Of a DNA stretch of 64,000 bases, positions 7,736 through 58,536 are shown one piece after another (position 1 is the stretch's first letter; every line of letters begins with the position of its first letter). The DNA is taken from NCBI GenBank assembly GCA_050942615.1, contig JBMNNQ010000001.1, positions 12,385 through 76,384 on the forward strand, in the 5' to 3' direction. This stretch comes from Dethiobacteria bacterium. GTDB taxonomy: Bacteria > Bacillota > Dethiobacteria > DTU022 > UBA8154. The position numbers and the translations under genes were made by a program. The notes under the pieces were generated by a model. The model had not been told where the DNA came from and made no database searches. It saw only the letters and a program-made list of their open reading frames with translations.

Positions 7736-9642
7736 CAGTATGGGTAACCTTCATAGACCTTTTCTTTTAGCCGGCAAAGTTTTAATGCCTCGCGGGCGAT
7801 GCCTTCCCCTGAAAGACCGTGCAGGTTTAATAAAAAGTCTCTGCTTCCCTGACCTGTATAAGCATTGGGCAGCCCCAGCCGCTTCAGGTTTATTTCCTGC
7901 AGCTCATTGTCGGCAAACGTTTCCAGGACAGCGCTGCCAAAACCCCCGCTTAAAATATGTTCCTCCACCGTCAAAACCCTGCCGCATTTTTTGGCCCAAT
8001 AACAGATTAGTTCTGTATCCAAAGGTTGAATAAAGCGGGAATTGATGACGCAACTTTCGATGCCCATTTTTAAAAGCAGGGCATGGGCTTCCAAAGCCGG
8101 TAAAACCATGGAGCCGACGGCTAAAATGAGTAGGTCAGGGCCTTCCCTTAAAAGCTGGGCTTTCCCCGCAGTTAAAATACCTGTTTCCGGTGATGAAAAC
8201 GCGGCTGCCTCTCCCCGGGGATAGCGGAGCGCTACCGGGCATTTTAAGGAAAAAGCCATTTTGAGCATTGCATCCAGCTCCCGACCGCTGGCCGGGGCCA
8301 TGAGGACAAGATTGGGCAAATGCCGCAGGTAGGCAAAATCAAACAAGCCGTTGTGGGTTTCCCCGTCTTCCCCCACCAGGCCGGCCCGGTCAACGGCGAA
8401 GACAACAGGCAGGTTTTGCAAACAAACGTCATGCAGGATCTGATCATACGCCCTTTGTAAAAAAGTGCTGTAAATAGCCACCACCGGTTTAAGGCCTTCT
8501 GCAGCCAACCCCGCGGCCATGGTGACAGCGTGTTGTTCGGCAATACCCACGTCAAAGAAACGTTGCGGCCACCGGTGGGCAAAAGGTTCCAAGCCTGTAC
8601 CTGCAGCCATCGCGGCGGTGATCGCAACAATGGAACGATCTTCCGCAGCCAGTTTTTCCAAAGAAGTGCTGAAAACCTTGCTGTATGCCGGTTGATTTTT
8701 TTTATTTACAGCAAGGGGTTCACCGGTCTTTTTACTAAAGGGCCCCACACCGTGAAAAACAAGGGGATTTTTTTCAGCAGGAGCATAGCCCCTGCCTTTT
8801 TTAGTAACAGCATGTATTAAAACCGGTCCGTGAACACTTTTTATTTCACGAAAAAGATTCACCAGTTTGGGAATGGAATGACCATCAATCGGCCCTAAAT
8901 ACTTAAAGCCAAGCTCTTCAAAAAGCATACCGGGTACTAACAGATATTTTAAGCTGTCTTTGAGGCGTTCAGCAGAACGAAGCACGGTCCGGCCAATGGC
9001 CGGTATGCGTTCCAAAATATGTTCTAGGTCTTCTTTCAGGCGAAAATACTTGGGGTCGGTGCGCAGTTTGGCCAGGTAGGAAGGAAGCCCCCCGATATTT
9101 TGGCCGATAGACATTTCGTTATCATTAAGAATAACCAATAGATCAGTTTTTTTCTCCCCTGCAAAATTAAGCGCCTCCAAGGCCATCCCGCCCGTTAAGG
9201 CGCCGTCACCAATAATATTAATGACAAAATTGTTTTTTCCCAGTAAGTCCCGGGCCTGGGCAATCCCCAGGGCTGCTGAAAGGGAGGTGCTGCTGTGCCC
9301 CACACCAAAAACATCGTACAGGCTTTCCCTTCTTTTAGGAAAGCCGCTTATGCCATTATAGCAACGAATCCTTGAAAAATGTTCCTGCCGACCGGTAAGA
9401 ATTTTATGGGTATAGCACTGGTGCCCCACATCCCAAAGAATCTTGTCGTGGGGAGCATTAAAAACAAAATGAAGGGCGATGGTCAGTTCAACAACCCCTA
9501 AGCTGGAGGCAAGATGGCCCCCTCTTTTGGAAACTACCTCAATCATAAATTCCCTTATTTCGCCGGCCAACTGTTCCAATTCTTTTAAAGACAACTTTTT
9601 CAGATCAGCAGGTTCATGAATTTTTTCAAGAATAACACCCAA
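7735..9642 (-). CDS. dxs: 1-deoxy-D-xylulose-5-phosphate synthase
   Basis: 635 aa with a TPP-binding GDGALTGGMA motif and a Dxs-specific N-terminus (LKELEQLAGEIREF...GGHLASSLGVVELTIALH). The apparent start is TTG. Confidence 0.93.
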   Translation of the reverse strand: MGVILEKIHEPADLKKLSLKELEQLAGEIREFMIEVVSKRGGHLASSLGVVELTIALHFVFNAPHDKILWDVGHQCYTHKILTGRQEHFSRIRCYNGISGFPKRRESLYDVFGVGHSSTSLSAALGIAQARDLLGKNNFVINIIGDGALTGGMALEALNFAGEKKTDLLVILNDNEMSIGQNIGGLPSYLAKLRTDPKYFRLKEDLEHILERIPAIGRTVLRSAERLKDSLKYLLVPGMLFEELGFKYLGPIDGHSIPKLVNLFREIKSVHGPVLIHAVTKKGRGYAPAEKNPLVFHGVGPFSKKTGEPLAVNKKNQPAYSKVFSTSLEKLAAEDRSIVAITAAMAAGTGLEPFAHRWPQRFFDVGIAEQHAVTMAAGLAAEGLKPVVAIYSTFLQRAYDQILHDVCLQNLPVVFAVDRAGLVGEDGETHNGLFDFAYLRHLPNLVLMAPASGRELDAMLKMAFSLKCPVALRYPRGEAAAFSSPETGILTAGKAQLLREGPDLLILAVGSMVLPALEAHALLLKMGIESCVINSRFIQPLDTELICYWAKKCGRVLTVEEHILSGGFGSAVLETFADNELQEINLKRLGLPNAYTGQGSRDFLLNLHGLSGEGIAREALKLCRLKEKVYEGYPY

Positions 9643-9742
9643 AAAACCACCGCTTCCCGCATAAATTTGGAGAAATAGTATCTAAACAGTTCTGGACAGC
9701 TTTCATGGTGAAGCGCAGCTTCAAAGGTGTACATGAAATTTT

Positions 9743-9778
9743 CATTATTGTTTCCAGTGTACGCTGGAAACAATAATG
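9743..9778 (-). other. Perfect 15-bp inverted repeat (stem-loop with a 6-nt loop) in the oapA-dxs intergenic region
   Basis: cattattgtttccag tgtacg ctggaaacaataatg. There is no adjacent U-tract on the minus strand. It could be a processing, stability or attenuation element. Confidence 0.5.
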
Positions 9779-9812
9779 CCGGATATAAAGTATTATTTTT
9801 AGCAGGACAATG

Positions 9813-10451
9813 CTATGCATTCCTCTTCCAGATAGAAATGCGCTCCAGGGTTGTTAAAAAACGGGCTACAAATAACACTACATCCGTTGGTCTGTTAATA
9901 GCCAGTGTTTTACCCAATGCCTTGCCGCCCACTGTTAAAGCGGATACCGCTCCTGCCAAAAAAATACTCAAAATAACTTCACTTAGTATTGGGTTACCCC
10001 GGACAAGGTTAACCACGATCACTGTCCCAATGATGCCGCTTACTATGCCGCTGATGTCCCCGATGACATCATTACAAAAGCTGGCCACCAGATCTGCATG
10101 GCGTACGAGAAAAATGCTTTTTTTTGCACCATAAATTTTTTTAGCCGCTTTGGCATGAAAAGGTATCTCCTCTGCCGCAGTAACGGCAGTGCCAATCACG
10201 TCAAAAAAAATGCCCATAAAAATAATGAAAATGAGAAGCATAAAGGAAATCAGCATGGAATGCAGGTTTTGCAACAAGGAGTGTGTGATCAGGGTAAGGG
10301 CTATGGCCAAAAAAAAAGTCCAAATACTGACTAAAACCACCCAGCGTTTATTATTTTTACTTTTCCATTGTTTTTGCCGTTGTTTTTTTGTGCCCAATAA
10401 TATTACGCTCGCTGCCATATAATATGATAATGATAAAAGTGGCAGCTCCAT
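9813..10451 (-). CDS. oapA: OLE-associated membrane protein OapA-like (multi-TM). Start uncertain: 10451 or 10499
   Basis: Polytopic membrane protein encoded immediately downstream of the OLE-like RNA and upstream of dxs. This is the conserved ispA-OLE-oapA-dxs arrangement. Sequence identity to characterised OapA could not be checked here. Confidence 0.6.
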   Translation of the reverse strand: MELPLLSLSYYMAASVILLGTKKQRQKQWKSKNNKRWVVLVSIWTFFLAIALTLITHSLLQNLHSMLISFMLLIFIIFMGIFFDVIGTAVTAAEEIPFHAKAAKKIYGAKKSIFLVRHADLVASFCNDVIGDISGIVSGIIGTVIVVNLVRGNPILSEVILSIFLAGAVSALTVGGKALGKTLAINRPTDVVLFVARFLTTLERISIWKRNA

Positions 10452-10454
10452 GGG

Positions 10455-11065
10455 TAAACTTTGCGGCTTAAGGTCCAGCAGGTTTTCCCAAATGTTCACC
10501 GGCTTGTCACCAAGCGGCAGTTTCCTATTAAGAACATCTCTGCTGTGTTACCACCAACAGGGCTGGATTACCACTTAGACCACACCTTAATCCCCATGGA
10601 GCCTCCCTACGACGGGGAACAGCCTAGGAGTTTTCCTCAATGCCGCAACATCGTTTTCTATCCTTTTTTGCAGCCCTGGTTTCCTAAGGGATGTTCCCTT
10701 CCTCCCCCAAAGCCACTCAAGGCAGGCTACACTGTGCACAGTTTTGACCACACACAGGTTCTATCCTAAGCCGTAACCTTTTACCCCTACAGTAATACGC
10801 CACCAACTTAGGTCTCCACGAAGGCAGGGTCAACGCCTACATGCCTTTGTAGATCGCCCCGTCCTTCTTAACCCCCAGCACCGACCCCCGTCTGGGCTTC
10901 GGCCGCCGGCACCAGGAACTTCATCGATATGCCTTGAGCGGTTTTTCCCGCCCGCTTTCAAAAACGCTTGCGGCAACTAGGATACTGCACCACTATGTCC
11001 AGTTAAATTATAGCATATCATCCCTGGCAACTCAACGCTATTCCCCGGGCGAAAAGTCTAGGGGT
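10455..11065 (-). ncRNA. ole: OLE (ornate, large, extremophilic) RNA candidate
   Basis: About 600 nt with no protein-coding capacity in any frame, GC-rich with many short complementary segments. It lies exactly between ispA (stop at 11066) and a multi-TM gene followed by dxs, which is the diagnostic genomic context of OLE RNA in anaerobic Firmicutes. A TATAAT-like element sits near 10995-11010 on the minus strand. RNase P and tmRNA motifs were not found. Confidence 0.7.
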
Positions 11066-11983
11066 CTAGTAGTCCCGATAGAAAGCCCGGCGGGTAATTT
11101 TCTTCAGGGAAAAACTCTTTTCACCGAATATAGACAGCTCCCCGACGGCCTGTTCATATAGTTGGTCCCTTTTATTTTTTGCGGCAGCCAGACCGTAGTA
11201 GGAAACATAGTTGGCCTTTCCTCTTTGTGCATCCTGCCCACAAATTTTCCCCATTTTTTCAGTGTCACCTTCAACATCCAGCAGATCGTCAACAATTTGG
11301 AAGCCCCTGCCTAACAGGCGGGCATAGGCGGTCAAACCGGCCAGCTCGGCGGCTGTGGCTCCACCCAACAAAGCGCCGGCACGCACAGAGGCTGTGAGCA
11401 GCTTTCCTGTTTTATGGGTATCAATGTATTGCAGGGTTTCCAGGTCAACGGATTTACCTTCGGAGTCAAGATCAACTGCCTGTCCCCCAACCATACCCTG
11501 CACCCCGGCTGAGGTTGCTATTTCCCCGATTATTTTTAATTTAATTTCCGGGCTGGTTTCTAACTGATAATAATTGCAAAAAGCATTTTTCTTTTGCCTG
11601 TCCACAGCCAAAACTTCAAAGGCCAAGGTTAACAATGCATCCCCGGCCAGTATAGCGACGGCTTCACCAAAGACCTTATGCGAAGTGGGCTGCCCCCGCC
11701 TGTAGTCATCATCATCCATGGCCGGCAGATCGTCATGGATTAAGGAATAAGTATGCATGAATTCGAGGGCACAGGCTACCGGCAGGGCGTTTTTCCAGTC
11801 TGCCGTAAAGAGCTCCATTGTGAACAGGACCAGCAGCGGCCGAAGACGCTTGCCGCCGGCAAAAACACTGTAACGCATGGCACGGTGAATGCCTTCGGGG
11901 TACTGATCTTCAGCCGGCAAATAATAATTCAAAGCACTGTCAATTAAAGTTTTTCTGGTTTCCAATAATTCATCAAACTTCAT
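11066..11983 (-). CDS. ispA: Farnesyl diphosphate synthase / (2E,6E)-farnesyl diphosphate synthase
   Basis: First and second aspartate-rich motifs (LIHDDLPAMDDDDYRRG and FQIVDDLLDVEGD). The start was chosen at MKFDELL, which lies downstream of the xseB stop. Confidence 0.9.
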   Translation of the reverse strand: MKFDELLETRKTLIDSALNYYLPAEDQYPEGIHRAMRYSVFAGGKRLRPLLVLFTMELFTADWKNALPVACALEFMHTYSLIHDDLPAMDDDDYRRGQPTSHKVFGEAVAILAGDALLTLAFEVLAVDRQKKNAFCNYYQLETSPEIKLKIIGEIATSAGVQGMVGGQAVDLDSEGKSVDLETLQYIDTHKTGKLLTASVRAGALLGGATAAELAGLTAYARLLGRGFQIVDDLLDVEGDTEKMGKICGQDAQRGKANYVSYYGLAAAKNKRDQLYEQAVGELSIFGEKSFSLKKITRRAFYRDY

Positions 11984-12041
11984 TTTTGGACTCCCCGGCC
12001 AGTTTTCAGCCTCTTTGATTATCTGAGGCACCTTTTAGTAT

Positions 12042-12284
12042 TTATTCTTCTTCAAATACTTCAAATGCCGTTAATTCACCATTTTGTAGTAACGTTTCCA
12101 CCTTATATTCTGCTTTGCTAAGCAGCTTTCGGCAATGCTGGGCCAGCTTCAACCCTTCTTCCAGATGTTGAAGTGACTTTTCCAGGCTAAGTTCACCTTT
12201 TTCCATTTGTTCGCTAATAGCTTCTAACTTTTGTAAGGCTTCTTCAAACTTTAAATTCAAATCCTTGGGTTTTTCCGGGCGCAC
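12042..12284 (-). CDS. xseB: Exodeoxyribonuclease VII small subunit
   Basis: 80-aa helical protein (FEEALQKLEAISEQMEKGELSLEKSL) directly downstream of xseA. Confidence 0.9.
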   Translation of the reverse strand: MRPEKPKDLNLKFEEALQKLEAISEQMEKGELSLEKSLQHLEEGLKLAQHCRKLLSKAEYKVETLLQNGELTAFEVFEEE

Positions 12285-12298
12285 TTTTAAACCCTCTT

Positions 12299-13528
12299 TC
12301 AGCCGTCCTGTAATTTTTTTCTGTGTATATCCTTAACCTCACAATCTGCTTGGCCATCGTGAAAAACAACGTGAATCCTTTGCCCTTTTTTTAGAAAATT
12401 GATGCTGTCTACCGGCAAGCTGTGCTGATCGTTGATCAGAGTAAATCCCCGTTTTAGAACATTTGCAGGATCCAGGGCCTTCAGTTTTTCCTCCGCGCTG
12501 TAAAGTGCCGATTTTTTAAATTTTAAACTGTAGGCCAGGTTTTGTTCCAATCGCTGTCCTATTTCATCAATACGCTGGTAACCCTGGTTAATTCTTTCCT
12601 TTAAATACCTTAAATGTACTGCCGGTGAAAGATTTTTCAGGATAAGCCTTTTTCCCCGCAGGAAGCCTTGCCAGCAGCTTAGCAATTGACGCTCCTGCAT
12701 TTTCAAGTGCTGTAAAAGATCTTTTTTCCGGGGGGCAATTAACTCCGCTGCGGCCGTGGGCGTTGAGGCTCTGATATCTGCTACAAAATCGGCAATTGTA
12801 AAGTCTGTTTCGTGTCCGATAGCGCTGATGACAGGCGTTTTCAGTTTATATAGAGCATAAGCCAGCGCTTCATCGTTGAAAGGCCATAGTTCTTCCAAAG
12901 AACCGCCTCCCCTGGTGATAACGATGACTTCCACACCTGCGTAATCGTCCAGTTTTTTCAAGGCATCTATAATCTGCCCGGGGGCCTCGGGCCCCTGAAC
13001 GGTTACGGGATAGAAAAGAACATGAACACAGGGGAACCTTCTTTCCAAAGTTGTTAAGAAGTCTTTAATTGCCGCCCCGGCAGGGGAGGTAACCAACCCG
13101 ATGCAACGCGGCAGGCGGGGTAAGGATTTTTTCCGGCCGGTATCAAAAATCCCTTCTCTTTTCAGTTTTTCTTTTAACTGTTCAAACGCCAGGTATAGTG
13201 CTCCAATGCCTTCCGGCTTCAATTCTTCAACATATAGTTGGTAATATCCGCTTCGTTCATAAAGTGAAACGTTCCCCCTGGCGACAACCTTCATTCCTTC
13301 TGTCGGCATAAAATTTAACCTTCTATTTTTACTGAGGAAGAAAACGCAGCGGATAACACTATTTTTATCTTTTAAAGTAAAATAAATGTGCCCCGAAGGG
13401 CGGTGACGTTTAAAATTTGAAATTTCACCTAAAATTGAAATGTTTTGCAGCAATCCATCCTGGAACAACAGGCCTTTTATATATCCGTTTACCTGGGAAA
13501 CGGTGTAGATACCTTTTTCCGGGGTCAT
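12299..13528 (-). CDS. xseA: Exodeoxyribonuclease VII large subunit
   Basis: 409 aa with an OB-fold N-terminus (YTVSQVNGYIKGLL...ISNFKRHRPSGHIYFTLKD). Its start overlaps the stop of the third folD paralogue. Confidence 0.9.
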   Translation of the reverse strand: MTPEKGIYTVSQVNGYIKGLLFQDGLLQNISILGEISNFKRHRPSGHIYFTLKDKNSVIRCVFFLSKNRRLNFMPTEGMKVVARGNVSLYERSGYYQLYVEELKPEGIGALYLAFEQLKEKLKREGIFDTGRKKSLPRLPRCIGLVTSPAGAAIKDFLTTLERRFPCVHVLFYPVTVQGPEAPGQIIDALKKLDDYAGVEVIVITRGGGSLEELWPFNDEALAYALYKLKTPVISAIGHETDFTIADFVADIRASTPTAAAELIAPRKKDLLQHLKMQERQLLSCWQGFLRGKRLILKNLSPAVHLRYLKERINQGYQRIDEIGQRLEQNLAYSLKFKKSALYSAEEKLKALDPANVLKRGFTLINDQHSLPVDSINFLKKGQRIHVVFHDGQADCEVKDIHRKKLQDG

Positions 13529-14382
13529 GATGTTCTTGCCGCCGTATCAAGAAGGTTTGTAAGCAACATGGAAATGGTCACCGGGCCAACCCCTCCCGGC
13601 ACCGGTGTTATCCAACCGGCAACTTTTTTTACACCCCAGTAATCGACATCTCCTACCAAACGGGTTCCGATCAAATTAACACCGACATCGATCACAATGG
13701 CACCCTTTCTAACCATTTCAGCGGTAATCAGGCGTGGGTTACCGGTAGCCACAACGAGCAGCTCTGCCCTTTTGGTAAAGGGGATTAGGTCCGGAGTTTG
13801 GGAATGACAGATACTGACGATTGCTTTTTTATTCAAAAGCAGGGCGGCTACAGGTTTGCCGACAAGCTCACTGCGCCCGACAACGACAGCCTGTTTGTTT
13901 TCCAGGTTTACCTCTGTAGCTTCAATTAATTTCATAATCCCTTTGGCTACATAGGGTACCAGCGGAGGGTTGCCCCTGCAAAGGTTCCCCATATTTTGAA
14001 AATGGAGACCTTCAATGTCTTTATGAGGAGCGACCAGTTGAGAAATATATGTGAAGTTAAAATGGGGGGGGAGCGGATGAATATTAATACCGTGGATCCC
14101 CGGGTCAGCGTTTAGCCGTTTAAGCAGTTGGCTGAGCTCTTCTTTGGTGGTTTCTTCCGGCAGGCAATGGATCTGGCAGTTGATACCAAGTTGCCGGCAG
14201 GCCCTTTCTTTCAAGCGGGCTACATGGATGCGGGCGGCAGGATTTTGAAGAACAATGATCGCCAGGCCGGGTGTTGTTTCTTTTTTCTTCAAGGTTGCAA
14301 TTTTTGTTCTTAACTCTTCCCGTACTTTCCTGGTGATCTGAACACCGCTGATTACCCTTGCAGACAAAATTTTCCCCTCCAT
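13525..14382 (-). CDS. FolD-family paralogue 3 (divergent methylene-THF dehydrogenase/cyclohydrolase-like)
   Basis: FolD fold with GLAIIVLQNPAA, DIEG (canonical DVDG) and a conserved PVPGGVGPVT. The catalytic YxxxK region is altered (RIHVARLKER). The start was chosen at MEGKIL. Confidence 0.7.
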   Translation of the reverse strand: MEGKILSARVISGVQITRKVREELRTKIATLKKKETTPGLAIIVLQNPAARIHVARLKERACRQLGINCQIHCLPEETTKEELSQLLKRLNADPGIHGINIHPLPPHFNFTYISQLVAPHKDIEGLHFQNMGNLCRGNPPLVPYVAKGIMKLIEATEVNLENKQAVVVGRSELVGKPVAALLLNKKAIVSICHSQTPDLIPFTKRAELLVVATGNPRLITAEMVRKGAIVIDVGVNLIGTRLVGDVDYWGVKKVAGWITPVPGGVGPVTISMLLTNLLDTAARTS

Positions 14383-14476
14383 AACCATCCAACAAAGTGG
14401 CTGTTTCAAAAAAATAAATAAGGGAAAGAGCACAAGCTATTAACGGGGCAAGTTCTCAATGCTCCTTCCCGCATCA

Positions 14477-15343
14477 TTAGTGTTGCATGCCGAATAATGT
14501 TTGTTTAAAGGCTTGTAACGTATTCTTCATCAGCATGGTAATGGCTAGGGGGCTGTCTTCACCTGCCGGCAGGGTAAAGATACAACCTGCCACTTTTTCA
14601 ACCTCTTTTAGAACAAACCCACTGGCCTGTTCTGGGCCGTCAGGGGTTGTCCCGATGTCCATGACCATGGCTCCCGGTTTAACCCAGTCGCCTTTAATCA
14701 GCCCCGGTTTCCCTGTTTCGGAAACAAGTATATCTGCAGTACGGCAAATTTTGGGCAGATCGCTGCTTAAAACAGGGCAAAAAGTTACCGAAGCATTTTT
14801 TTTGAGCAATGCCAAGGTTAAAGGCCGGCTGACAACGCCCCTGCGGCTGATCAGTACCGCTGTTTTACCCCCGATGGGCTGCCCGGCAAAGTCGAGCACC
14901 TGCATCAGGGCATAAACGTTACAAGGTAAAAACCCTTCGTTTCCACTGAATAGTTTCCCGGCATTAATCGGGTGCCTGCCGCCGACATCCTTCCCGGGAT
15001 CAATAGCGGCTAAGATCTCTCTTTTCTGCAGGGTTTCCGGCAGGGGCAGTTGGCAGAACAGACCCTGAACCCGGCTTTCCTTGTTTAGCTGCCGTATGGT
15101 TATACAGATATCATCCTGGGAAGCAGTTGCAGGTAAATAACGTATATCAGCATAGAAACCTAATTTTTCACATTGTTTCTCTTTACAACGAACTGAGGCT
15201 AAGGAGGCAGGGTCTTCACCCACGACAACCATGCCCAGACCAGGAGCTTTGTCTGTTTTTTGCTTTAGCTCCTTTAATTCTGCGATGATCCCAGCGCAGA
15301 CCTTGCCCCCCACTTCCGCCTCTTTAAGTAACTTCACAGGCAT
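14477..15343 (-). CDS. FolD-family paralogue 2 (highly divergent; catalytic motifs degenerate)
   Basis: 288 aa. GLGMVVVGEDPAS is conserved, but DVGG replaces DVDG and PAGEDSPLAITM replaces PGGVGPMT. The conserved catalytic-motif Tyr is replaced (ASVRCKEK). Confidence 0.65.
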   Translation of the reverse strand: MPVKLLKEAEVGGKVCAGIIAELKELKQKTDKAPGLGMVVVGEDPASLASVRCKEKQCEKLGFYADIRYLPATASQDDICITIRQLNKESRVQGLFCQLPLPETLQKREILAAIDPGKDVGGRHPINAGKLFSGNEGFLPCNVYALMQVLDFAGQPIGGKTAVLISRRGVVSRPLTLALLKKNASVTFCPVLSSDLPKICRTADILVSETGKPGLIKGDWVKPGAMVMDIGTTPDGPEQASGFVLKEVEKVAGCIFTLPAGEDSPLAITMLMKNTLQAFKQTLFGMQH

Positions 15344-15370
15344 AGTAGTTTACTGCCTTGCTTTTTATTT

Positions 15371-16255
15371 TTAGCCTTCGTTCAGTCTGATGGCTGCTTC
15401 AACAGTGTTATAAAGAAGCATGGTTACCGTCATGGGGCCTACGCCACCGGGGACGGGGGTGATAAAGGATGCTTTTTCCTTCACTGTTTCAAAGTCCACA
15501 TCACCGGCCAGGCGGAAACCGCTCTTCCGGGATTCGTCAGGAATTCTGTTTACGCCCACGTCAATCACTACGGTTCCTTCTTTCACCATGTCAGCGGTGA
15601 TGGCATTGGGCCTGCCCATGGCTGCAATCAGAATGTCAGCTTGTTTTGTAAAGTAAGAAATGTCTTTGGCGCCGGTATGCACAACAGTGACCACAGCGTT
15701 GGCACCTTCAGCTTTTTGCATCAGAATTGCGGCCAGCGGTTTGCCGACAATGTTGCTGCGGCCACAAACAACAACGTGTTTGCCTGCCGGATCGTTGCCG
15801 GAACGGAAGAGCAGCTGCTGGACGCCGTGGGGTGTACAGGGCAGCGGGCAGGGCTCGCCCCTGAGCAGTTTACCCACGTTTACCGGGTGGAAACCGTCGA
15901 CGTCTTTTTCCGGGGAAATGAAGCTGATCACTTTTTCAACGCTGATATGATCGGGCAGGGGAAGCTGTACCAAGATGCCGCTAAATTTGGGATCCTTATT
16001 TAGGCCGTCGATAACCTTAAGCACTTCTTCCTCGGGTACATCAGCCGGGAGACGAATTGTTTCTTCAAACATGCCAATTTCCTGGCTGCCCTTGGCTTTA
16101 CTGGTTACATAAGAAATAGATGCCGGATCTTCCCCCACCAAAACCACACCCAAGCCTGGAACAATGCCCTTTTCCTTTAATTCGGCAACCTTTCCTTTAA
16201 GCTCCTGCCTGATCTCCTTGGCCACTTCGTTTCCAGAAATAATCTTTGCCGTCAT
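15371..16255 (-). CDS. folD: Bifunctional 5,10-methylene-THF dehydrogenase / 5,10-methenyl-THF cyclohydrolase (canonical)
   Basis: 294 aa with all FolD hallmarks present: GLGVVLVGEDPASISYVTSKAK, DVDGFHP and PVPGGVGPMTV. Confidence 0.92.
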   Translation of the reverse strand: MTAKIISGNEVAKEIRQELKGKVAELKEKGIVPGLGVVLVGEDPASISYVTSKAKGSQEIGMFEETIRLPADVPEEEVLKVIDGLNKDPKFSGILVQLPLPDHISVEKVISFISPEKDVDGFHPVNVGKLLRGEPCPLPCTPHGVQQLLFRSGNDPAGKHVVVCGRSNIVGKPLAAILMQKAEGANAVVTVVHTGAKDISYFTKQADILIAAMGRPNAITADMVKEGTVVIDVGVNRIPDESRKSGFRLAGDVDFETVKEKASFITPVPGGVGPMTVTMLLYNTVEAAIRLNEG

Positions 16256-20646: not shown

Positions 20647-21177
20647 CTATTTGTGTTGTATAACCTGTACCTCTTCCCGGGGAATTTCAATGGTTGCGGC
20701 CACCGTTTCGGTGACTCGCAAAAAATCCTCCGCCTCCAGTTTTTCAGTTTCAACCATCACTATTGTACCCTTCCTGCAGGAAAATAAAAGGGCGTCTTTA
20801 TACCCCTGCGCCTTAAGCAGGTTTTCAGCAAGCAGTTCTTTTTCCATCAAATTGACCAGTTGTAAAAGCTGTTGTTCCGCCTCCAGCCTGGCTTCCGATC
20901 CCACCTGGGGATTGTTGATCATTTCGTTGAGCATTTCTGTTTCCTGGCTCCTGATCCGCTCCCTTTCCAGGCGGTATTCCATAAAAAATTCCTGGGAACT
21001 GTCAAAACTCCAACTTTCCGGTCCAGCGTTAAGGCCCGCAGTGGTCAGAGGCTGAAATACTTCTTCATCAGGTATTATCTCTATCCTGCACATTTCCTTT
21101 TCTACCCCGCTTAAGAACATATAGGTTACAGCTGCCACCAAAAGGAGACTAAAAACCCAAACCATTTTCCTGTTCAT
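20647..21177 (-). CDS. spoIIIAH: Stage III sporulation protein AH
   Basis: 176 aa with an N-terminal TM helix and a YscJ/FliF-like C-terminal domain. It is the last gene of the spoIIIA operon. Confidence 0.8.
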   Translation of the reverse strand: MNRKMVWVFSLLLVAAVTYMFLSGVEKEMCRIEIIPDEEVFQPLTTAGLNAGPESWSFDSSQEFFMEYRLERERIRSQETEMLNEMINNPQVGSEARLEAEQQLLQLVNLMEKELLAENLLKAQGYKDALLFSCRKGTIVMVETEKLEAEDFLRVTETVAATIEIPREEVQVIQHK

Positions 21178-21205
21178 TGTTTTAAAAATTCACCACCTTT
21201 TATTT

Positions 21206-21838
21206 TCAGTTCTTGCCCAGGGGTAAAACAGCTATCCTGTGTACCGGCAGGTTCAAAACGCTTTGGATGGCGCGGATTACCCTTAAACGCAGACCACTGT
21301 TTTCCACGCCCTGCGCTACCACCAGCACTCCCGTAATCCGGGGCATACTTTCACTTAAAAGCAGGGGTTTTTCCCCCCCGTTTGCTTCCCGTAACAGGAT
21401 ATAATTTTCTTTACTGTTGTTTTCCAGGATTTCTCTTTGCCCCCCCTCCCGATCACTTTCTGCGGTTTGCTTACTGTTTTCTTCATGAACCAGGCCATAG
21501 GTTGACTCCTTACTACCGGCAAAATTGATAAATACCTGTACCTGACTGATTCCATCTATATGCTCCAGGACCTGTTGTAATGATTGGCACAAATCTTTTT
21601 CATATGTATTTGCAACCATGAAGGAAACCTCTGTTTCTTCCGGTGGTTGCCCGTTGGGTAAAGAAGCTTTTTTGAACGGCGTAAAAAGTGAACCGGCAAA
21701 CATTAGTATTATCCCCAGGAGGAGTAAGGATAATAGAAAATAATTTTTCCTTTTATCCCTGAAAAATTTTCCCGTAAAAAAATCCTTGAACAAAGCAAAC
21801 GTCTTATTTTTGGGTTCTTTACTGGACATGGTCCCCAC
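21206..21838 (-). CDS. spoIIIAG: Stage III sporulation protein AG
   Basis: 210 aa with an N-terminal TM helix; assigned by operon position. Confidence 0.75.
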   Translation of the reverse strand: MGTMSSKEPKNKTFALFKDFFTGKFFRDKRKNYFLLSLLLLGIILMFAGSLFTPFKKASLPNGQPPEETEVSFMVANTYEKDLCQSLQQVLEHIDGISQVQVFINFAGSKESTYGLVHEENSKQTAESDREGGQREILENNSKENYILLREANGGEKPLLLSESMPRITGVLVVAQGVENSGLRLRVIRAIQSVLNLPVHRIAVLPLGKN

Positions 21839-21841
21839 CTT

Positions 21842-22519
21842 TCAAGGCCGAATTTCGACTTCAACATTTTCAGGGGGAAGTCGAAAATAGGCGGCCAGAT
21901 ACTTTTCAACTTCCCTTGTTTGGCCCCCGTTGCTGCCCGGGGAAACCCTGCCTTCACCTGTATTGTTTACGCTGCTGTTTTCCCGGGAGGCCCCTTTGTT
22001 TGAGGAGGCCACCTCCACAGCAATATTTACCTCCTCAAATTTTCCGGGGGCAGAAACCTCCTTGACAAATTTTTTTTCCTGCACAACTGCATAAATATGT
22101 TTGAACAAACCAAATTCCTTGCTGTCAGGGTTATCCTCCGTTGTAATCTGCAGGTCAAGTAAATCCTGTTGAAATTCCCGGGCCAGCTCCGCTGTTAATA
22201 GGTCGTATACTTTGGCTTGGTATTCTTCCAGGGCATTTTTCATTTTTTCTTTATACAGCTGTTCTCCACGACCCAGGATCGCCTCCAATTCTGCCCTGTT
22301 TTCATTTTCCATATTGTTCACCAGGGGAGGAATTTCCCAATATGGTGCCAGGTGCATTATTTTTTGCAGGGGGGTGATCAGTGTAAAAATAAGCAGTATC
22401 CCGATGAGCATGCGTAAATAACGGCGAAAAACCCCTTGCGGCAAAATCATTTCCAAAAGGGTGCTGATAAAAATGAGGATGACAATGTAACGGATAAGCC
22501 CCCCGATTGTTTCCATCAT
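21842..22519 (-). CDS. spoIIIAF: Stage III sporulation protein AF
   Basis: 225 aa with two N-terminal TM helices; assigned by operon position. Confidence 0.75.
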   Translation of the reverse strand: MMETIGGLIRYIVILIFISTLLEMILPQGVFRRYLRMLIGILLIFTLITPLQKIMHLAPYWEIPPLVNNMENENRAELEAILGRGEQLYKEKMKNALEEYQAKVYDLLTAELAREFQQDLLDLQITTEDNPDSKEFGLFKHIYAVVQEKKFVKEVSAPGKFEEVNIAVEVASSNKGASRENSSVNNTGEGRVSPGSNGGQTREVEKYLAAYFRLPPENVEVEIRP

Positions 22520-22545
22520 CTTTATTCATCCTTCCAGCCGGTTTT

Positions 22546-23772
22546 TCAGCGCAGCATGATCGTGGCGTTACTGATGCCGATGATGATGGCCACACCGATA
22601 AAAAAGACGAGGGCTACCGCGGCTACAGCAGCAAAAATCATCGTCAGGCATTTGCTCATGGATTCCAGGGCACCGCCCAGGGTAGTTTCCCCCAGGGGTT
22701 GAATTAAAGCGCTGCAGACCTTGTAGATACTGATGACAGCCAGTATTTTCAGTAAGGGAAAAACCGTAATCAGGGCCAATATAACCAGGCCCATAATAGT
22801 TGCACTGTTTTTAATTAACATGGAATAGCCAAGGACGGTTTCTATTGCATCGGCAAGCTTGCCTCCCACTACCGGAATAAAAGCACCGGTCATAAATTTA
22901 GCTGTTTTCAGCGTCAAGGCATCACCAATGCCCCCGGCTACCCCCTGAATAGACATAAAACCGGTAAATAGTGTTAACAAAAGCCCCAAACTTATGATAC
23001 TGATATCTTTAAATAGATCAGCCAGGCGGTTGATCTTGAAATGCGGCGAAAAATGATCTACCAAGTACAGAATAGTTGCCAGGAAAATCAGGGGAAAAAT
23101 TATATTATTAATCAGGGAAGCGCTGAAATTAACGGCAAAGATGATCAAGGGATGAAAAAGGCTGACCGAGGCAACATGGCCCAAGGAGGCCATTAAAGTT
23201 AACAAAACCGGCAGCAGGGCAAGCATAAAGTTTACCATGTTTTCTACAGTATGTTTCCCGGTTTCAGCAACCATTGTAAAACTTTTCATAGCCAGTCCCA
23301 ACAGCACGAAAAAGGCAACGGCTTCCGTCAACCGTGCAACTTCTTCAGAACTAAAAGCCCCCTGCAAACTTTTTAAAAGTGCGGCAGCTACCGCTAAAAA
23401 AAGGAGCTGGCCCAGCAGGCCCAAGTTGGTGATTACCTCTGCCAACAGGTAGCGGCCCAGTCCTGCGCATATTTCCCGAAAAGGAACCAGGCCCCCCTCC
23501 CCCTTTTTCCAGATATCCCTGATGTTCCAGGAGGGTAAAAATTCGCCCATTTCGTCTTCCAATTCATACCAATATTTTTCTACCTGCTCCCAACCTTCCA
23601 AAGGAGGGGCCTCTTCATCCTCGCCTGCCATCAAAACACCTGCCGGGGCCGCCCCCTGCCGGGCCATAACCCCCCCGGGGGATGTCCAAATCAGCACCAC
23701 TAGAAAAAAGGTCAGGAAAACTTTTGTCGGTGAAAATTTTTCCGTACCCATCCTGTTGCACCCTGCCTCCAT
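22546..23772 (-). CDS. spoIIIAE: Stage III sporulation protein AE
   Basis: 408 aa with a signal peptide and a polytopic membrane domain. Confidence 0.85.
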   Translation of the reverse strand: MEAGCNRMGTEKFSPTKVFLTFFLVVLIWTSPGGVMARQGAAPAGVLMAGEDEEAPPLEGWEQVEKYWYELEDEMGEFLPSWNIRDIWKKGEGGLVPFREICAGLGRYLLAEVITNLGLLGQLLFLAVAAALLKSLQGAFSSEEVARLTEAVAFFVLLGLAMKSFTMVAETGKHTVENMVNFMLALLPVLLTLMASLGHVASVSLFHPLIIFAVNFSASLINNIIFPLIFLATILYLVDHFSPHFKINRLADLFKDISIISLGLLLTLFTGFMSIQGVAGGIGDALTLKTAKFMTGAFIPVVGGKLADAIETVLGYSMLIKNSATIMGLVILALITVFPLLKILAVISIYKVCSALIQPLGETTLGGALESMSKCLTMIFAAVAAVALVFFIGVAIIIGISNATIMLR

Positions 23773-23779
23773 ATTTTAC

Positions 23780-24166
23780 CTATGGTATAAAATTGATAAT
23801 TCCTTCTAAAATAGCCACAAGTATAGGTATGGCCATGATTAAAATCAGTATTTTGCCGGCGAATTCAATTTTAGCAGCAATGTTAACGTCACCTGCATCT
23901 TTACATATCTGTGCCCCAAATTCAGCAAGGTAGGCGACACCGATTACACGCATCAGAATTCTTAAAAAAACAGTATTTATTTCCGCTTGCAGGGCTAAAT
24001 CAGTTATTACATCAATAATCATTTTTAAATACCCTAAAACGTATACAACAATTGCTATTCCTACGCCGATCGATAATAGCTGGGCCAGTTCGGGCCGGCT
24101 TTGACGAATAAAAAGGATAAAAATTGTGGCGATTACCCCAAATACCATGACCTGTGCAATTTCCAC
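23780..24166 (-). CDS. spoIIIAD: Stage III sporulation protein AD
   Basis: 128-aa four-TM protein. Confidence 0.85.
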   Translation of the reverse strand: MEIAQVMVFGVIATIFILFIRQSRPELAQLLSIGVGIAIVVYVLGYLKMIIDVITDLALQAEINTVFLRILMRVIGVAYLAEFGAQICKDAGDVNIAAKIEFAGKILILIMAIPILVAILEGIINFIP

Positions 24167-24183
24167 GGAGCAGCAACACCCAC

Positions 24184-24390
24184 TTAATATAAATTAAAAA
24201 TGTCGCGGATACTGGTAAAAAGATCTCCCAAGAGTTGTAAAACCAGGAGAAGCACAATTACGACACCAACCAAGGTCAGCATTTGTGCCTGTTCCTCCTT
24301 ACCGGCTTGTTTGAGGACAATGTTTAAAACAGAAATAAAAATACCAATGCCGGCGATCTGAAAAAGGAGATCGACCCTCAAAACATGCAT
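24184..24390 (-). CDS. spoIIIAC: Stage III sporulation protein AC
   Basis: 68 aa from the ATG at 24390 (MHVLRVDLLFQIAGIGIF...), similar to B. subtilis SpoIIIAC. Confidence 0.85.
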   Translation of the reverse strand: MHVLRVDLLFQIAGIGIFISVLNIVLKQAGKEEQAQMLTLVGVVIVLLLVLQLLGDLFTSIRDIFNLY

Positions 24391-24453
24391 TTTCAACCCC
24401 CTTCCTCCCTGCAAAGCCCCGGGTTTTAGACACCCGGGCTGTTTGCCCGGCCC

Positions 24454-24978
24454 CTAAAGAAGAAAAATAACCAAAGTGATACCGCCCAGCAACCCTAAAT
24501 ATTTCCAAACCTTATCATTCTTTTGTAGTTCATCCTGTGCCTCCCGGTGAACCTGCCGCAACAGCTCTTTAACTAATTTAATTTGTCGCAGTTGATCATT
24601 TTTATCGCCCTTTCCCCAGGCCAGTCCCAGTCTTTCCAACAGCTGGCTGCCGGCAGGGGAAAGGGATAAGCGGGCTGCGCTGTTTTTCAAGGCCTTTTGC
24701 CAGCATTCCCCGGCACTCAGGCCCCTGTTTTTTTGCATTTCCCCGGCTGCATCACGAAAGACAGCCCCCACCGGCCCTTTCAATTTTGCGCCGATGTTTA
24801 TAAAAGCCCGCGGCAGGGGGGTCAGACCATAGCTTACTTCCGTGGAAAACAGTTCCAACCCGACCAGGAGTTCTTCCAGTTGAAGAACGCGCTGCCGGTA
24901 ATAAAAAGAAACGCCATTTCCATAAAGATAGGCAGCAGTAATAATCAAAGCTGCTCCCAAACCCTTGAGGTAGATCAT
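24454..24978 (-). CDS. spoIIIAB: Stage III sporulation protein AB
   Basis: 174 aa with a GspF-like fold. Confidence 0.8.
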   Translation of the reverse strand: MIYLKGLGAALIITAAYLYGNGVSFYYRQRVLQLEELLVGLELFSTEVSYGLTPLPRAFINIGAKLKGPVGAVFRDAAGEMQKNRGLSAGECWQKALKNSAARLSLSPAGSQLLERLGLAWGKGDKNDQLRQIKLVKELLRQVHREAQDELQKNDKVWKYLGLLGGITLVIFLL

Positions 24979-25982
24979 TTGGCTTTTTCTTCACCCCCGT
25001 AGCGGGCAGAATAAAGGGGCAGTCCTTTTTCCCCTTCAATGATCATCTCCAGGGTCCCCGGCCCCTTGTTGTTATTCAGGAAAATAAGGCGTTCAAAAAT
25101 ATTTTCCTGTAATAGTTCACCTAGAACGGGCCGTTGGCAGAGCTCCTCCAGCGAGGAACCATGGACAGAAGCAATAACGGATACCCCTGCAGATACAGCC
25201 TCAGCAAGAGCCTGTACATCCTCTTCCCTGCCGATTTCATCTGTAATAATTACCTGTGGTGAAAGTGAACGCAGCATGAGCATAATTCCTTCTGCTTTGG
25301 GGCAGGCGTCCAAAACGTCTGTCCTGATGCCAACATCCAACTGCGGAACCCCCTGGAAACAGCCGGCAATCTCGGAACGTTCATCAATAACGCCCACTTT
25401 TTGCCCCGCTTGGCCCAAAATCCCGGCACCGTTGCTGATTAAGCGAGCTAAATCCCTGAGCAGTGTTGTTTTCCCCCCCTGGGGAGGAGAAATAATCAGG
25501 GTATGAAAAATACGCCAGGTTTGCCGGTCAAACAGAAAACCGAGCACTTTTTCGCCCGCCCCTTTGATCTGACGAGCTACACGAAAATTAAGGGAACTGA
25601 TGTCCCGCAAGATCCTGATCTTGCCATTTTCCAGCACTGCCCTTCCGGCCAGGCCTACACGGTGCCCGCCAGGAAGGGTCAGGTAACCCTGTTTTAGTTC
25701 TTCCTCAAAGGCATAAAGGGAATAACTGCTGATCAGTTCTACTGTCTTCTCTAAATCCTCACCAAAAACATGGTAAGCCTCCTTGGCTGTCAGGACAGGC
25801 CCCTTTGTCCCAAGAAAGACTTCCCCCCCCGCCCAATAGATAATAAGAGGCCGGGAATGCCGCAAACGTATTTCTTCTGTTTTATTTAAAACCTCCGCCG
25901 GCAATTTTTCGATAATAGCGCGGATCGGCAGGGTCAGAAAAGGGCAGATCTGTTTTATAATATTATTCCGGGCTTTCCCCAT
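24975..25982 (-). CDS. spoIIIAA: Stage III sporulation protein AA (secretion-type ATPase)
   Basis: 335 aa with Walker A PPQGGKTT. Confidence 0.9.
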   Translation of the reverse strand: MGKARNNIIKQICPFLTLPIRAIIEKLPAEVLNKTEEIRLRHSRPLIIYWAGGEVFLGTKGPVLTAKEAYHVFGEDLEKTVELISSYSLYAFEEELKQGYLTLPGGHRVGLAGRAVLENGKIRILRDISSLNFRVARQIKGAGEKVLGFLFDRQTWRIFHTLIISPPQGGKTTLLRDLARLISNGAGILGQAGQKVGVIDERSEIAGCFQGVPQLDVGIRTDVLDACPKAEGIMLMLRSLSPQVIITDEIGREEDVQALAEAVSAGVSVIASVHGSSLEELCQRPVLGELLQENIFERLIFLNNNKGPGTLEMIIEGEKGLPLYSARYGGEEKAK

Positions 25983-51234: not shown

Positions 51235-52155
51235 TTACATACTTTGAAATGTCTGCATAATACGAATTAAGGCCGGCCCCAACAGAACAACAAACAGGGT
51301 TGGAAAAATAAAAAATACCAGGGGGAAAAGCATTTTGATCGGTGCTTTCATCGCTGCCTCTTCAGCACGCTGGCGCCGTTTTCGCCGCATGGCTTCAGCC
51401 TGGATACGCAAGGTGTTGGCAATGTTACTGCCTAATTGTTCAGACTGAATTACAGCGCTGATAAAGCTGCTCAGGTCCTGCACCCCCGTGCGCCCGACGA
51501 TGCTGCGCAGGGCCTCTTCCCGGGTCTTGCCCAGCCGCATTTCCTCCAGGGCCCGCGCTATTTCCTGGCCCAGAATACCGGGCGCCTGTTCAGTAACCCG
51601 CTTCAAAGCCATATCAAAACCCAACCCTGCTTCCGCACTGACCAACAGCAGGTCAAGGGTATCCGGTAAACTTTTTTGAATTTCATGCTGGCGCTTTGCC
51701 GCCCGTGAATTTAGCAGTCCCACGGGCAGCGTTGCCCCGCTGGAAAAGGCCAGGAACAAGAAAAACACAGTTCTTTGTTCCCCCCAACCGGCAAGCCGGA
51801 TCGCCATCCCCGCCAGGAAAACAAAAAAAACAGCCAGCAGGGCCTGCAGGGAAATTAAACTGTTAAAGTTCATCTTGCCGGGGTTTCCCGCATAGCCGAT
51901 CTTTTTTTCCAAACCCTGGCGGATTTCCCGGGGAGTTAAATTGCCCAAAGCGGCACCTAGTTTACGGAAGACTGGTTGAATTATTCTTTCAAAAAACGGT
52001 TTCCGCAGCTCATCTTCTGTGGCATTTTCTGCCATTTTCCTAATGGTTTGCAGCCGCAGGGCAACCTGTTTTTGGGGGCCCCAAAAAACTTCATAAAAAG
52101 CAGTCACCAGGAGAACAACGGTGGCAAAAAGCAGAACGTTGACCAGCAATAACAT
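51235..52155 (-). CDS. tadC: Tad pilus platform protein TadC (GspF family)
   Basis: 306 aa with three TM helices and a GspF-like domain. Confidence 0.8.
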   Translation of the reverse strand: MLLLVNVLLFATVVLLVTAFYEVFWGPQKQVALRLQTIRKMAENATEDELRKPFFERIIQPVFRKLGAALGNLTPREIRQGLEKKIGYAGNPGKMNFNSLISLQALLAVFFVFLAGMAIRLAGWGEQRTVFFLFLAFSSGATLPVGLLNSRAAKRQHEIQKSLPDTLDLLLVSAEAGLGFDMALKRVTEQAPGILGQEIARALEEMRLGKTREEALRSIVGRTGVQDLSSFISAVIQSEQLGSNIANTLRIQAEAMRRKRRQRAEEAAMKAPIKMLFPLVFFIFPTLFVVLLGPALIRIMQTFQSM

Positions 52156-52170
52156 TTTTTCACCCCTGAA

Positions 52171-53139
52171 TCAAACTTCGATATTGACAATTTTACGAAT
52201 CACGATAATCCCGGCAATTTGCAACACCACAGCCAAACCCAACAGGATCAGGCCCAGTGTGTCCCGGACCAGCGTCAACATATATTCCGGGTTCATAAGC
52301 ATCAGAAAAGCAGCCACACCAAGGGGTAACAGGATGATAATCAGGGCCGATAACCGGCCTTGTGCGGTCAGTGTTTTAATTTCCCCCTTAATACGTACAC
52401 GTTCACGGATAGTCTGTGAAATATTATCAAGAATTTCTGCAAGGTTGCCCCCAACCTGCCTTTGAATAAGCAAAGCGGTAATCATTAAGTTAAGATCCTC
52501 ATTCCCGGCTCTTTCCCCAAGGTTATGCAGCACTTCTTCCAAAGGTTTGCCCATCTGGTTTTCCCAGATCGCCCGGGAAAATTCCTCCCCTATTGGCGGT
52601 CCCATTTCCCGGCCGACCACGGACATTGCCTGGGGAAAACTATAACCGGCCCGCAATCCGTTGGAAACTATCGTCAGCGCCTCCGGCAACTGTTGGGTCA
52701 AAGCATTGATGCGCCGGCTTCTTTTCATCCCGATGACAAGATCAGGAACTTTGTAACCCACCAACCCGGCCGGTAAAGCCAAAAAAAAGTGTCCTGTAAT
52801 CAGGTAAAAGAAAATAAAAACGGCTGTTCCAACACAGACTGCCAAGCCGATAAGCTCTTCTGCACGCATTAAGACATGAGCCTGCAGCAGTTTTTGCTGT
52901 ATACCCTGCAGATTGGCCCGGCGCGAGGGCATGGTTCCCAATAGCCTCAAAAAACGCCGAAACCCTTTTTTTAAACCTTCGGCCCCAGCCTCCTCCGGTT
53001 GCTGATAGTCCGGAGACAATATGCCGGTTTTTAATCTTTCCAAAACAAGGTTACGGGAGGCAAACAACGTATAATAAAGACCTGTAAATAAGAAAACCAC
53101 AGTTAGAAAAGCGCCGCCCAGAACAGCTAGTTGCAACAT
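52171..53139 (-). CDS. tadB: Tad pilus platform protein TadB (GspF family)
   Basis: Start at MLQLAVLGG. GspF-like domain. Confidence 0.8.
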   Translation of the reverse strand: MLQLAVLGGAFLTVVFLFTGLYYTLFASRNLVLERLKTGILSPDYQQPEEAGAEGLKKGFRRFLRLLGTMPSRRANLQGIQQKLLQAHVLMRAEELIGLAVCVGTAVFIFFYLITGHFFLALPAGLVGYKVPDLVIGMKRSRRINALTQQLPEALTIVSNGLRAGYSFPQAMSVVGREMGPPIGEEFSRAIWENQMGKPLEEVLHNLGERAGNEDLNLMITALLIQRQVGGNLAEILDNISQTIRERVRIKGEIKTLTAQGRLSALIIILLPLGVAAFLMLMNPEYMLTLVRDTLGLILLGLAVVLQIAGIIVIRKIVNIEV

Positions 53140-53140
53140 T

Positions 53141-56447: not shown

Positions 56448-56519
56448 CGTACTTACGCCCCTCTCAAAAAAACAGTTTCCTGATTGAACTGCTCAACTAG
56501 TACTTGGTTTCCAAACAAA

Positions 56520-57530: not shown

Positions 57531-57619
57531 ATCATTTCTCCCGCAATGATCTATTTGGTACAGATACAAGCCCGGTAAACAAAGTTGGCTGCTAAAGCCG
57601 CAAAAAGGCGCACTGTGTG

Positions 57620-58045
57620 TTAATCAGGCACGGGGTAAGATTCGCACCGCATCTCGGCCTTGGCAGACAAAATGAACAGATCCTTGTTAAGAACCCGGTC
57701 AAAAAAGGGCACTGCCCCGACAGCAGCAGTAAATTCCACTGTAACATCCCCATCCTCATACCTGGCTGCAGGCGCCGGTTCTATTTCTATCCCGGCCGGG
57801 TCGATTCTGATAAAAGGCATCAGTGAAGAAACTGCCATTACCTTGTCCTTTACTGCAGCGTCTGATTTACCTACAACAGCCAGCCTCGCCCCTTCCTTAG
57901 CTGCGCTGGCAATGACAATCTGGCCGCTGAAAATCATGGCAAACTGAATCAGACCCAATACCGCTAATAGCATTATCGGTAAAAGGAGGGCTGTTTCCAC
58001 CAGAGACTGGCCTTTCTTGTTATTATTAAGACGACTGACAGCCAT
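57620..58045 (-). CDS. tadE: TadE/TadF-family pseudopilin
   Basis: Contains GQSLVETALLLPIMLLAVLGLIQF. Confidence 0.75.
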   Translation of the reverse strand: MAVSRLNNNKKGQSLVETALLLPIMLLAVLGLIQFAMIFSGQIVIASAAKEGARLAVVGKSDAAVKDKVMAVSSLMPFIRIDPAGIEIEPAPAARYEDGDVTVEFTAAVGAVPFFDRVLNKDLFILSAKAEMRCESYPVPD

Positions 58046-58082
58046 TTCATGCTTTCTCCTAACCGGGACGTTAATCAAAAAA

Positions 58083-58490: not shown

Positions 58491-58536
58491 AGGATCTCAC
58501 CTGCAAAATAAAAATTTATAATAAACCGGTATTATT

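Follow-up and report, generated by a model that had tools for sequence, protein, structure and literature searches.

Ornate, large, extremophilic (OLE) RNA is among the largest and most conserved bacterial non-coding RNAs that lack an assigned biochemical function, and each correctly placed copy provides comparative data. Its proposed mode of action derives from experiments in Halalkalibacterium halodurans and from two cryo-electron microscopy (cryo-EM) structures of Clostridium OLE (PMC12265935, PMC7936274, PMC9723947, PMC12054373, PMC12286853). Here, we describe the OLE locus of a Dethiobacteria bacterium (assembly GCA_050942615.1), contained in a stretch of 64,000 nt (contig JBMNNQ010000001.1, positions 12,385 to 76,384) that we refer to as the window. 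(Positions below are those of the window, and all features are on the minus strand unless otherwise indicated.) The sequence 11009..10423 almost certainly encodes OLE RNA, and 10418..9813 its membrane partner, OapA.

By analogy with the published systems, the RNA would assemble at the cell membrane with a dimer of OapA, and also with OapB and OapC, which would be encoded elsewhere. The P3 stem would hold the RNA at, or possibly through, the membrane, while OapB would clamp the P12.2/P13 junction, and OapC and bS21 would bind the kink-turn (k-turn) region. The RNA itself would dimerize via an A–A contact in L4 and kissing loops L5.1/L6.1. The resulting particle is expected to aid adaptation to stresses that include excess Mg2+, short-chain alcohols, cold and growth on poor carbon sources. 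OapA is probably a CNNM-like divalent-ion transporter, whose missing CBS/CorC regulatory domains would be functionally replaced by OLE RNA.

A previous model-based reading of the letters, made without database searches (the sequence-only reading), had proposed an OLE RNA at 10455-11065, between ispA and the gene for a protein with multiple transmembrane (TM) segments. The present analysis established the identity of the RNA, its architecture, the conservation of its protein sites and its genomic coupling to oapA. In an Rfam scan of the whole window, the OLE family (RF01071) matched 11009..10423 with 443.2 bits (E = 7.6e-127), compared to a gathering score of 50 bits. The match is 587 nt long and spans positions 1-616 of the 616-position model, without truncation; the structured core reaches from the 5′ strand of P1 (10994) to its 3′ strand (10438). 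The minimum free energy of the 587-nt RNA was -224 kcal/mol, compared to -197.5 ± 7.0 kcal/mol for dinucleotide shuffles (z = -3.8), and none of 100 shuffles was as stable. The proposal of a long, structured non-coding RNA on the coding strand was thus borne out by both the covariance model and the shuffles. The proposed span included 555 of the 587 nt of OLE, but its ends were misplaced: 11010-11065 is the spacer between ispA and OLE, and the last 32 nt (10423-10454) were omitted because an open reading frame (ORF) at 9813-10499 had been taken as oapA. The absence of any RNase P or transfer-messenger RNA (tmRNA) signature, also claimed in that reading, agrees with the scan, in which OLE and a cyclic diguanylate (c-di-GMP)-I riboswitch were the sole Rfam matches in the window; RNase P, tmRNA, raiA, GOLLD and ROOL were excluded.

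The cmscan alignment was transcribed and verified base for base against the window sequence, and 130 of the 143 consensus pairs of RF01071 proved to be canonical. Covariation was assessed by counting all 169 pairs in 21 OLE RNAs of different families, aligned with MAFFT. Standard pairs made up 89.1% of the cells, as against 74.6% after shuffling and 40-48% when the partners were slid by 1-3 columns. Both-sided (compensatory) changes were found in 113 of the 169 pairs, and none of 500 shuffles matched the observed values on any measure. The Rfam consensus carries no annotation for the long-range P1, P2 and P3/P3.1 of the current model, and these were located from the sequence. Their 5′ strands occupy 10961..10994, with P1 at 10994-10989, P2 at 10987-10977 and P3/P3.1 at 10975-10961. 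P1 is formed by AGUGGU and GCCACU (6 bp; 3′ strand at 10443-10438), P2 by CAGU and GCUG plus CUAG and CUAG (4+4 bp), P3 by UGCCGCAA and UUGCGGCA (8 bp), and P3.1 by CGUU(UU) and (AA)AACG (4-6 bp in the window). P3 and P3.1 of OLE typically sum to 12 bp, and P1, P2 and P3/P3.1 enclose domain 1. In the 21 RNAs, 18 of the 20 pairs of P1, P3 and P3.1 had compensatory changes; P2 was almost invariant and is therefore uninformative either way.

The remaining helices follow the model. P5/P5.1 (loop GCCCA, 10897-10893), J5/6, P6/P6.1 (loop CAAAGGCAUG, 10849-10840) and J6/7 (CGUGGAGACC, 10820-10811) together occupy 10811..10918. This region holds the kissing-loop contact B2 and the k-turn/bS21 region, and its helices 7-9 are supported by covariation. 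P7 (10812-10765) and P8 (10757-10732) are both present within 10732..10812, with canonical pairs and covariation (helices 10 and 11). The 3′ strands of P3.1, P3 and P2, together with domain 2 (P10-P15), lie at 10438..10660, where the model, the pairs and covariation in helices 15-22 agree. Domain 2 includes the invariant sequence GGAUUAAGGUGUGGUCUAAGUGGUAAUCCAG (10593-10563) and P14.1 (10518-10498), which ends in a GNRA loop (GUGA).

The sites at which proteins contact OLE in the published work are all recognizable. P3/P3.1 has been proposed as the membrane-crossing stem, and the CUAG palindrome in P2 is a mapped OapA site (PMC12265935); the P4a palindrome AUCGAU is the second such site, and GAUGAAG of J4a/5 is the k-turn strand bound by OapC (PMC12265935, PMC9723947). 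Both predicted OapA palindromes are present in the window, CUAG at 10980-10977 and AUCGAU at 10928-10923, the latter followed by GAUGAAG (10919..10928 for the P4a–J4a/5 segment), and all of these columns are invariant or nearly so. The sequences of the predicted k-turn for OapC and bS21 were found around P5: UCGAUGAAG (J4a/5), GUUAAG (J5/6) and GUGGAGAC (J6/7). The k-turn retains its flanking base pairs (U-A and U-G in place of U-G and U-A), and the 21 OLE RNAs conserve the C of UCGAUG together with its G partner. OapB binding requires a GNRA tetraloop on P13 plus one bulged nucleotide within its stem (PMC7936274). P13 in the window (10560-10540) has the sequence CUGUUGGUG-GUAA-CACAGCAG, with a GNRA tetraloop and stem strands of 9 nt and 8 nt, which leaves a single bulge in the 5′ strand, three nt before the loop; we predict it to be the OapB site. 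The B2 loops, GCCCA in L5.1 and GGC in L6.1, the latter within CAAAGGCAUG, are invariant in the 21 RNAs. B2 is an intermolecular kissing contact between these two complementary loops.

The gene downstream of the RNA, oapA (9813..10418), encodes a protein of 201 aa if translated from ATG 10418, or of 194 aa if from TTG 10397. The protein has four hydrophobic helices, with TM-like segments at approximately residues 25-50, 47-83, 117-141 and 143-168, and is basic both at its N-terminus (8 K/R and no acidic residue in the first 27 residues) and in the loop between TM2 and TM3 (6 K/R). In Pfam, it scored 27.9 bits against CNNM/DUF21, below the cutoff of 28.4, and matched no other domain; no NCBIfam model matched it, and a PDB sequence search returned no relative (best E 0.48, to unrelated enzymes). 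An AlphaFold model built with 61 homologues had a predicted local distance difference test (pLDDT) score of 83.6 and a predicted template modelling (pTM) score of 0.71, and its six best PDB fold matches were to the archaeal CNNM protein MtCorB and the transmembrane domain of CorC (probabilities 0.94-1.00). Published OapA has the same characteristics: it is weakly related to CNNM, has four TM helices and carries basic clusters on the cytoplasmic side (PMC12265935, PMC11332333).

The alignment of OapA was also scanned against one genome per GTDB species, which gave 80 loci. In 76 of these, the homologue is immediately preceded by a full-length OLE on the same strand (29 confirmed by Rfam with 404-558 bits, the remainder found by an nhmmer profile). 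Of the four loci without OLE, three are cut by contig ends, with almost no upstream sequence. The other, L030 (1-1086), encodes an OapA homologue next to dxs, but is uninformative, as its contig begins ~430 nt upstream with an insertion sequence (IS)-like ORF fragment; an insertion may have displaced ole here, or the assembly may be broken. Together with the helices, the basic segments and the weak CNNM match, this coupling argues that the downstream multi-TM protein is indeed OapA, as the sequence-only reading had supposed. The closest named homologues belong to Dethiobacter, Dethiobacteria and Ca. Syntrophonatronum, and the closest species-representative genome is the metagenome-assembled genome (MAG) ‘Bacillota bacterium AS23ysBPME_228’ (locus L005), with 90% identity in OapA (best tblastn segment) and 97.4% in OLE. 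Some of the other OLE RNAs carry insertions: ~240 nt in L024 (1667-2497) and ~76 nt in L059 (1829-2496), both of which split the profile match near P7, and ~40 nt between P5 and P6 in a Symbiobacteriaceae OLE (L031, 1738-2421).

The best promoter-like site in the region 9500-12400 was at 11035..11007, immediately upstream of the RNA. It consists of a -35 element TTGAGT, a 17-nt spacer and a TG-extended -10 element TGcTATAAT, with 10 of 12 matches and the TG present. The first 3 nt of the Rfam match fall within the -10 hexamer, whose end is 12 nt ahead of P1. The columns TTG and T.TG.TATA.T are invariant among eight Dethiobacteria-type loci, while the spacer around them diverges. Of 73 loci across Bacillota (L005-L087), 40 had a TG-extended site with at least 10 of 12 matches in the 90 nt preceding OLE, compared to 9 of 7031 random 90-nt windows from the same loci and strand. 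No terminator-like site was found on the minus strand from ispA to dxs, including between OLE and oapA. We infer that a TG-extended -10, sigma-A-type promoter of its own drives transcription of OLE and that, because no terminator-like site intervenes, transcription would continue into oapA. Given the strong enrichment of the site across Bacillota, ole-oapA may often form a transcription unit by itself; the H. halodurans cluster has been described as polycistronic. Two inverted repeats were observed nearby. A G+C-rich palindrome, CGCCCGGGG, at 11040-11060, between the ispA stop and the promoter-like site (UUCCCCCGGGGAA in L005, and found also in L010), has no U-tract and may serve as a weak terminator for ispA or as a hairpin for processing. 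The 170-nt spacer between oapA and dxs contains an 18-nt inverted repeat with no spacer (9743-9778; 94% complementary), with a T-run on neither strand.

We considered the possibility that OLE acts mainly in cis, as a structured 5′ leader controlling oapA, rather than as a component of a ribonucleoprotein (RNP) acting in trans. P1 ends ~20 nt before the oapA start, and with a promoter upstream of OLE and no terminator-like site before oapA, the two are probably on one transcript. However, such co-transcription is compatible with an RNP role, and 570 nt with ~25 conserved helices and protein sites are far beyond what a leader needs. Furthermore, the OLE of H. halodurans is stable and abundant, binds OapA, OapB and OapC, and is localized to the membrane (PMC12265935, PMC7936274, PMC9723947). 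A mainly cis-acting role is thus very unlikely.

The RNA in the window departs from most OLE RNAs in two places, P9 and L4. P9 (10661..10723) retains its basal stems and internal loop, and its distal part is reduced to AAGGG-AACAU-CCCUU (10700-10686), with 4 nt in place of 39 model positions. To compare P9 among the loci, its length was measured in all of them from GCCUGCCUUG to UGCAAAA. The distribution was bimodal, with a short group of 46-58 nt and 85-106 nt in 65 other loci. The P9 region of the window is 55 nt long, with the loop AACAU and without the long arch or the palindromic GGCC loop (L9.3, bridge B3). Short P9 regions without a palindromic loop were found in the window, its four metagenome duplicates, L005-L010, L014, L015 and L056. 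The short form (51-55 nt) was also seen in three further relatives, namely Ca. Syntrophonatronum acetioxidans, a MAG of Dethiobacter sp. and a widespread Dethiobacteria MAG. By comparison, GGCC was present in 61 of the 65 long-P9 loci, and two of the remaining four had another palindrome (GAGCUC or GUCGAC). In the cryo-EM structures, L9.3 sits at the tip of the long arch and makes the symmetric kissing contact B3 (PMC12286853, PMC12265935). Since both the distal arch and the palindromic loop are missing, this contact cannot form in the Dethiobacter-relative lineage, and a search of P7 and P8 in the short-P9 group found no compensating palindromic loop.

The second departure is in the A-rich loop of the P4 hairpin (10937..10956), L4, which constitutes the dimer bridge B1 (PMC12286853). 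The loop sequence is GCGGGAAAAA in the window and G(C/G)CUAAAAAU in nearly all other OLE RNAs. Compared to GCCUAAAAAU, the run of five A residues is kept, but shifted by one, and four near-invariant positions differ. This alteration is limited to the window and L005.

A missing distal P9 and kissing loop, combined with changes at near-invariant L4 positions in the window and L005, might suggest a decaying or partly disabled OLE that has lost function in this lineage. However, the short P9 is common to 13 distinct sequences, whose overall identity to the window is 71-97% and which retain all other conserved blocks, as well as the pairing, an intact oapA and the conserved promoter, and the Rfam scores of the group (449-505 bits) are far above the threshold. 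This pattern points to purifying selection, making decay extremely unlikely, and the truncation is therefore best understood as an old, selected trait of the lineage rather than an assembly artefact. Accepted OLE variants with shorter P9 stems are already on record (PMC11332333), so that the long P9 is the common form and not one that defines the family, and we treat the short P9 as a minor lineage variation inside a known family. It is conceivable, but somewhat doubtful, that the Dethiobacter-type OLE is an undescribed natural form that keeps P7, P8 and all mapped protein sites, has lost the P9.2/P9.3 arch and its kissing loop, and, in the window and L005, has a remodelled L4. In that case, OLE would not need the third dimer bridge to function. 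Alternatively, such RNAs may have a different quaternary arrangement, with weaker dimers or dimers held by OapA, for example, in which case their compactness would make them natural constructs suited to structural studies of the membrane-spanning model.

The 3′ end of the RNA also bears on the start of oapA. The ORF from GTG 10499 encodes 228 aa and is 100% identical to gene call P0001 of the Joint Genome Institute (JGI), but its first 27 codons (10419-10499) overlap the 3′ 77 nt of OLE. Homologues align only from about residue 28 of this ORF (residue 1-8 of the 201-aa form), and the likely start is therefore ATG 10418 or TTG 10397, which corrects the extent of 9813-10499 assumed in the sequence-only reading. 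The public gene call likewise begins inside OLE and should be shortened; an identical ORF is found on JGI metagenome contigs as long as 93 kb. That the stretch is itself protein-coding, whether as a 5′ extension of oapA or through a 102-aa ORF on the opposite strand (10461-10769), has practically no chance of being correct: both ORFs exist and the public call uses the longer, but the extra 27 codons have no counterpart in any homologue and their bases form invariant parts of OLE helices with RNA-type compensatory changes, while the plus-strand ORF lies wholly within the RNA.

There was no evidence contradicting the identity of the RNA as OLE. Several points nevertheless weigh against parts of the overall reading. 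The function of OLE and OapA in this organism is a prediction transferred from other species. The genes oapB (ybzG) and oapC (ybxF) are outside the 64-kb window, making the full RNP putative here; no small KOW-like (oapB) or L7Ae-like (oapC) ORF was recognized in the window, and neither is expected near ole. Without the L9.3 kissing loop and with four near-invariant L4 positions changed, dimerization as seen by cryo-EM may be weaker or different. The match of OapA to the CNNM fold is weak, with E 0.02-1 and a TM-score of ~0.5, and no Shine–Dalgarno sequence is evident before ATG 10418 or TTG 10397.

The surrounding genes form the order xseA-xseB-ispA-OLE-oapA-dxs-tlyA-nadK-recN on the minus strand, and the gene set of the window is that reported by the Breaker laboratory as most often clustered with ole (PMC12265935). 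The upstream neighbour of OLE is ispA (farnesyl diphosphate synthase; 12031-11066), identified by NF045485 with 349.8 bits, and the gene downstream of oapA is dxs (1-deoxy-D-xylulose-5-phosphate synthase; 9642-7735), identified by TIGR00204 with 821.5 bits. These scores, together with the confirmation of xseA (13528-12299), xseB (12284-12042) and tlyA (7735-6899), establish the ispA-OLE-oapA-dxs context that had been recognized from the letters. Beyond tlyA are nadK (6865-6017), recN (6002-4200), spoIVB (4071-2746) and spo0A (2604-1807). In the other direction, xseA is preceded by three folD (methylene-tetrahydrofolate dehydrogenase/cyclohydrolase) paralogues (16255-13525), two oxidoreductase subunits (18756-16367), nusB (19228-18785), a DUF2273 gene (19517-19257), a gene for an Asp23-like membrane protein (20034-19498) and one of the Asp23 family (yqhY-like; 20505-20119). 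The three folD copies at 13525-16255 are arranged in tandem; one copy is the norm in such a neighbourhood.

Apart from spo0A and spoIVB, the window contains an ORF block at 20647-25982 that we assign provisionally to spoIIIA. The host is an uncultured, spore-forming relative of Dethiobacter, which fits the distribution of OLE in anaerobic or extremophilic Bacillota. The suggestion that the locus suits an anaerobic spore-former is thus upheld by the Dethiobacter-type homologues and the two sporulation genes.

At some distance from OLE, the c-di-GMP-I riboswitch (62538-62628; 85.8 bits in the Rfam scan) sits between a response-regulator/HD-GYP-type gene (62843-63925) and a Tad/Flp pilus cluster on the same strand (51235-61840). 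The cluster includes T2SSE, RcpC/CpaB, two TadE genes, Tad, a ParA-like response regulator, a second T2SSE and T2SSF, and is probably a c-di-GMP-controlled pilus operon. A 602-aa ORF, in which a partial T2SSE domain is joined to an RcpC domain, looks odd.

The RNA described here is a standard member of a well-studied family that can be annotated automatically with existing tools, and as an already known class it has low novelty. Given the existing Rfam model, the textbook context and a 97% identical copy in a public MAG, the window copy adds little on its own. Of some interest are only that the P9 arch and B3 have been lost throughout the lineage, that L4 is altered, and that the promoter-like site recurs across the family. 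That an entire lineage of Dethiobacter relatives lacks the P9 arch and L9.3 and is otherwise intact bears on the claim that the conserved dimer contacts are universally needed.

When compared to the full-length OLE RNAs of H. halodurans and Clostridium acetobutylicum, the RNA in the window shares the full model match, with P1-P8 and P10-P15, the contact sequences for OapA, OapB and OapC/bS21, and the L5.1/L6.1 kissing-loop nucleotides. It also shares an oapA gene immediately downstream and the ispA/dxs/xseAB/folD/nusB/yqhY neighbourhood. It differs from them in having a P9 of 55 nt, as against 85-106 nt, with no palindromic L9.3 (B3), and in having L4 as GCGGGAAAAA instead of G(C/G)CUAAAAAU. 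The nearest relative in sequence is the OLE of MAG AS23ysBPME_228 (JAAYRR010000052.1; L005), which has the same short P9, altered L4 and promoter-like site and differs by only a few substitutions; the two probably belong to the same genus or species group.

A shortened P9 is also found in OLE variant 1 (mostly TANB77; Fernando and Breaker 2024, PMC11332333). However, P7 and P8 are shorter in variant 1 and the OapB site at the end of P13 is often lost, whereas P7, P8 and the P13 GNRA loop and bulge are intact in the window. Variant 2 (mostly RF39; PMC11332333) lacks P7 and P8 altogether. The hosts differ as well, being free-living Dethiobacter relatives here and reduced-genome gut symbionts for variants 1 and 2. 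With 443 bits, the RNA would fall in the ‘full-length’ band (≥390) of that study, whose model differs from RF01071. On the protein side, OapA shares the DUF21/CNNM transmembrane fold with the CNNM-family Mg2+ transporters MpfA, CorB and CorC, as indicated by the weak Pfam match and the PDB fold matches. Unlike these transporters, it has neither a CBS pair nor a CorC/HlyC domain, and the literature proposes that this regulatory function is supplied by OLE.

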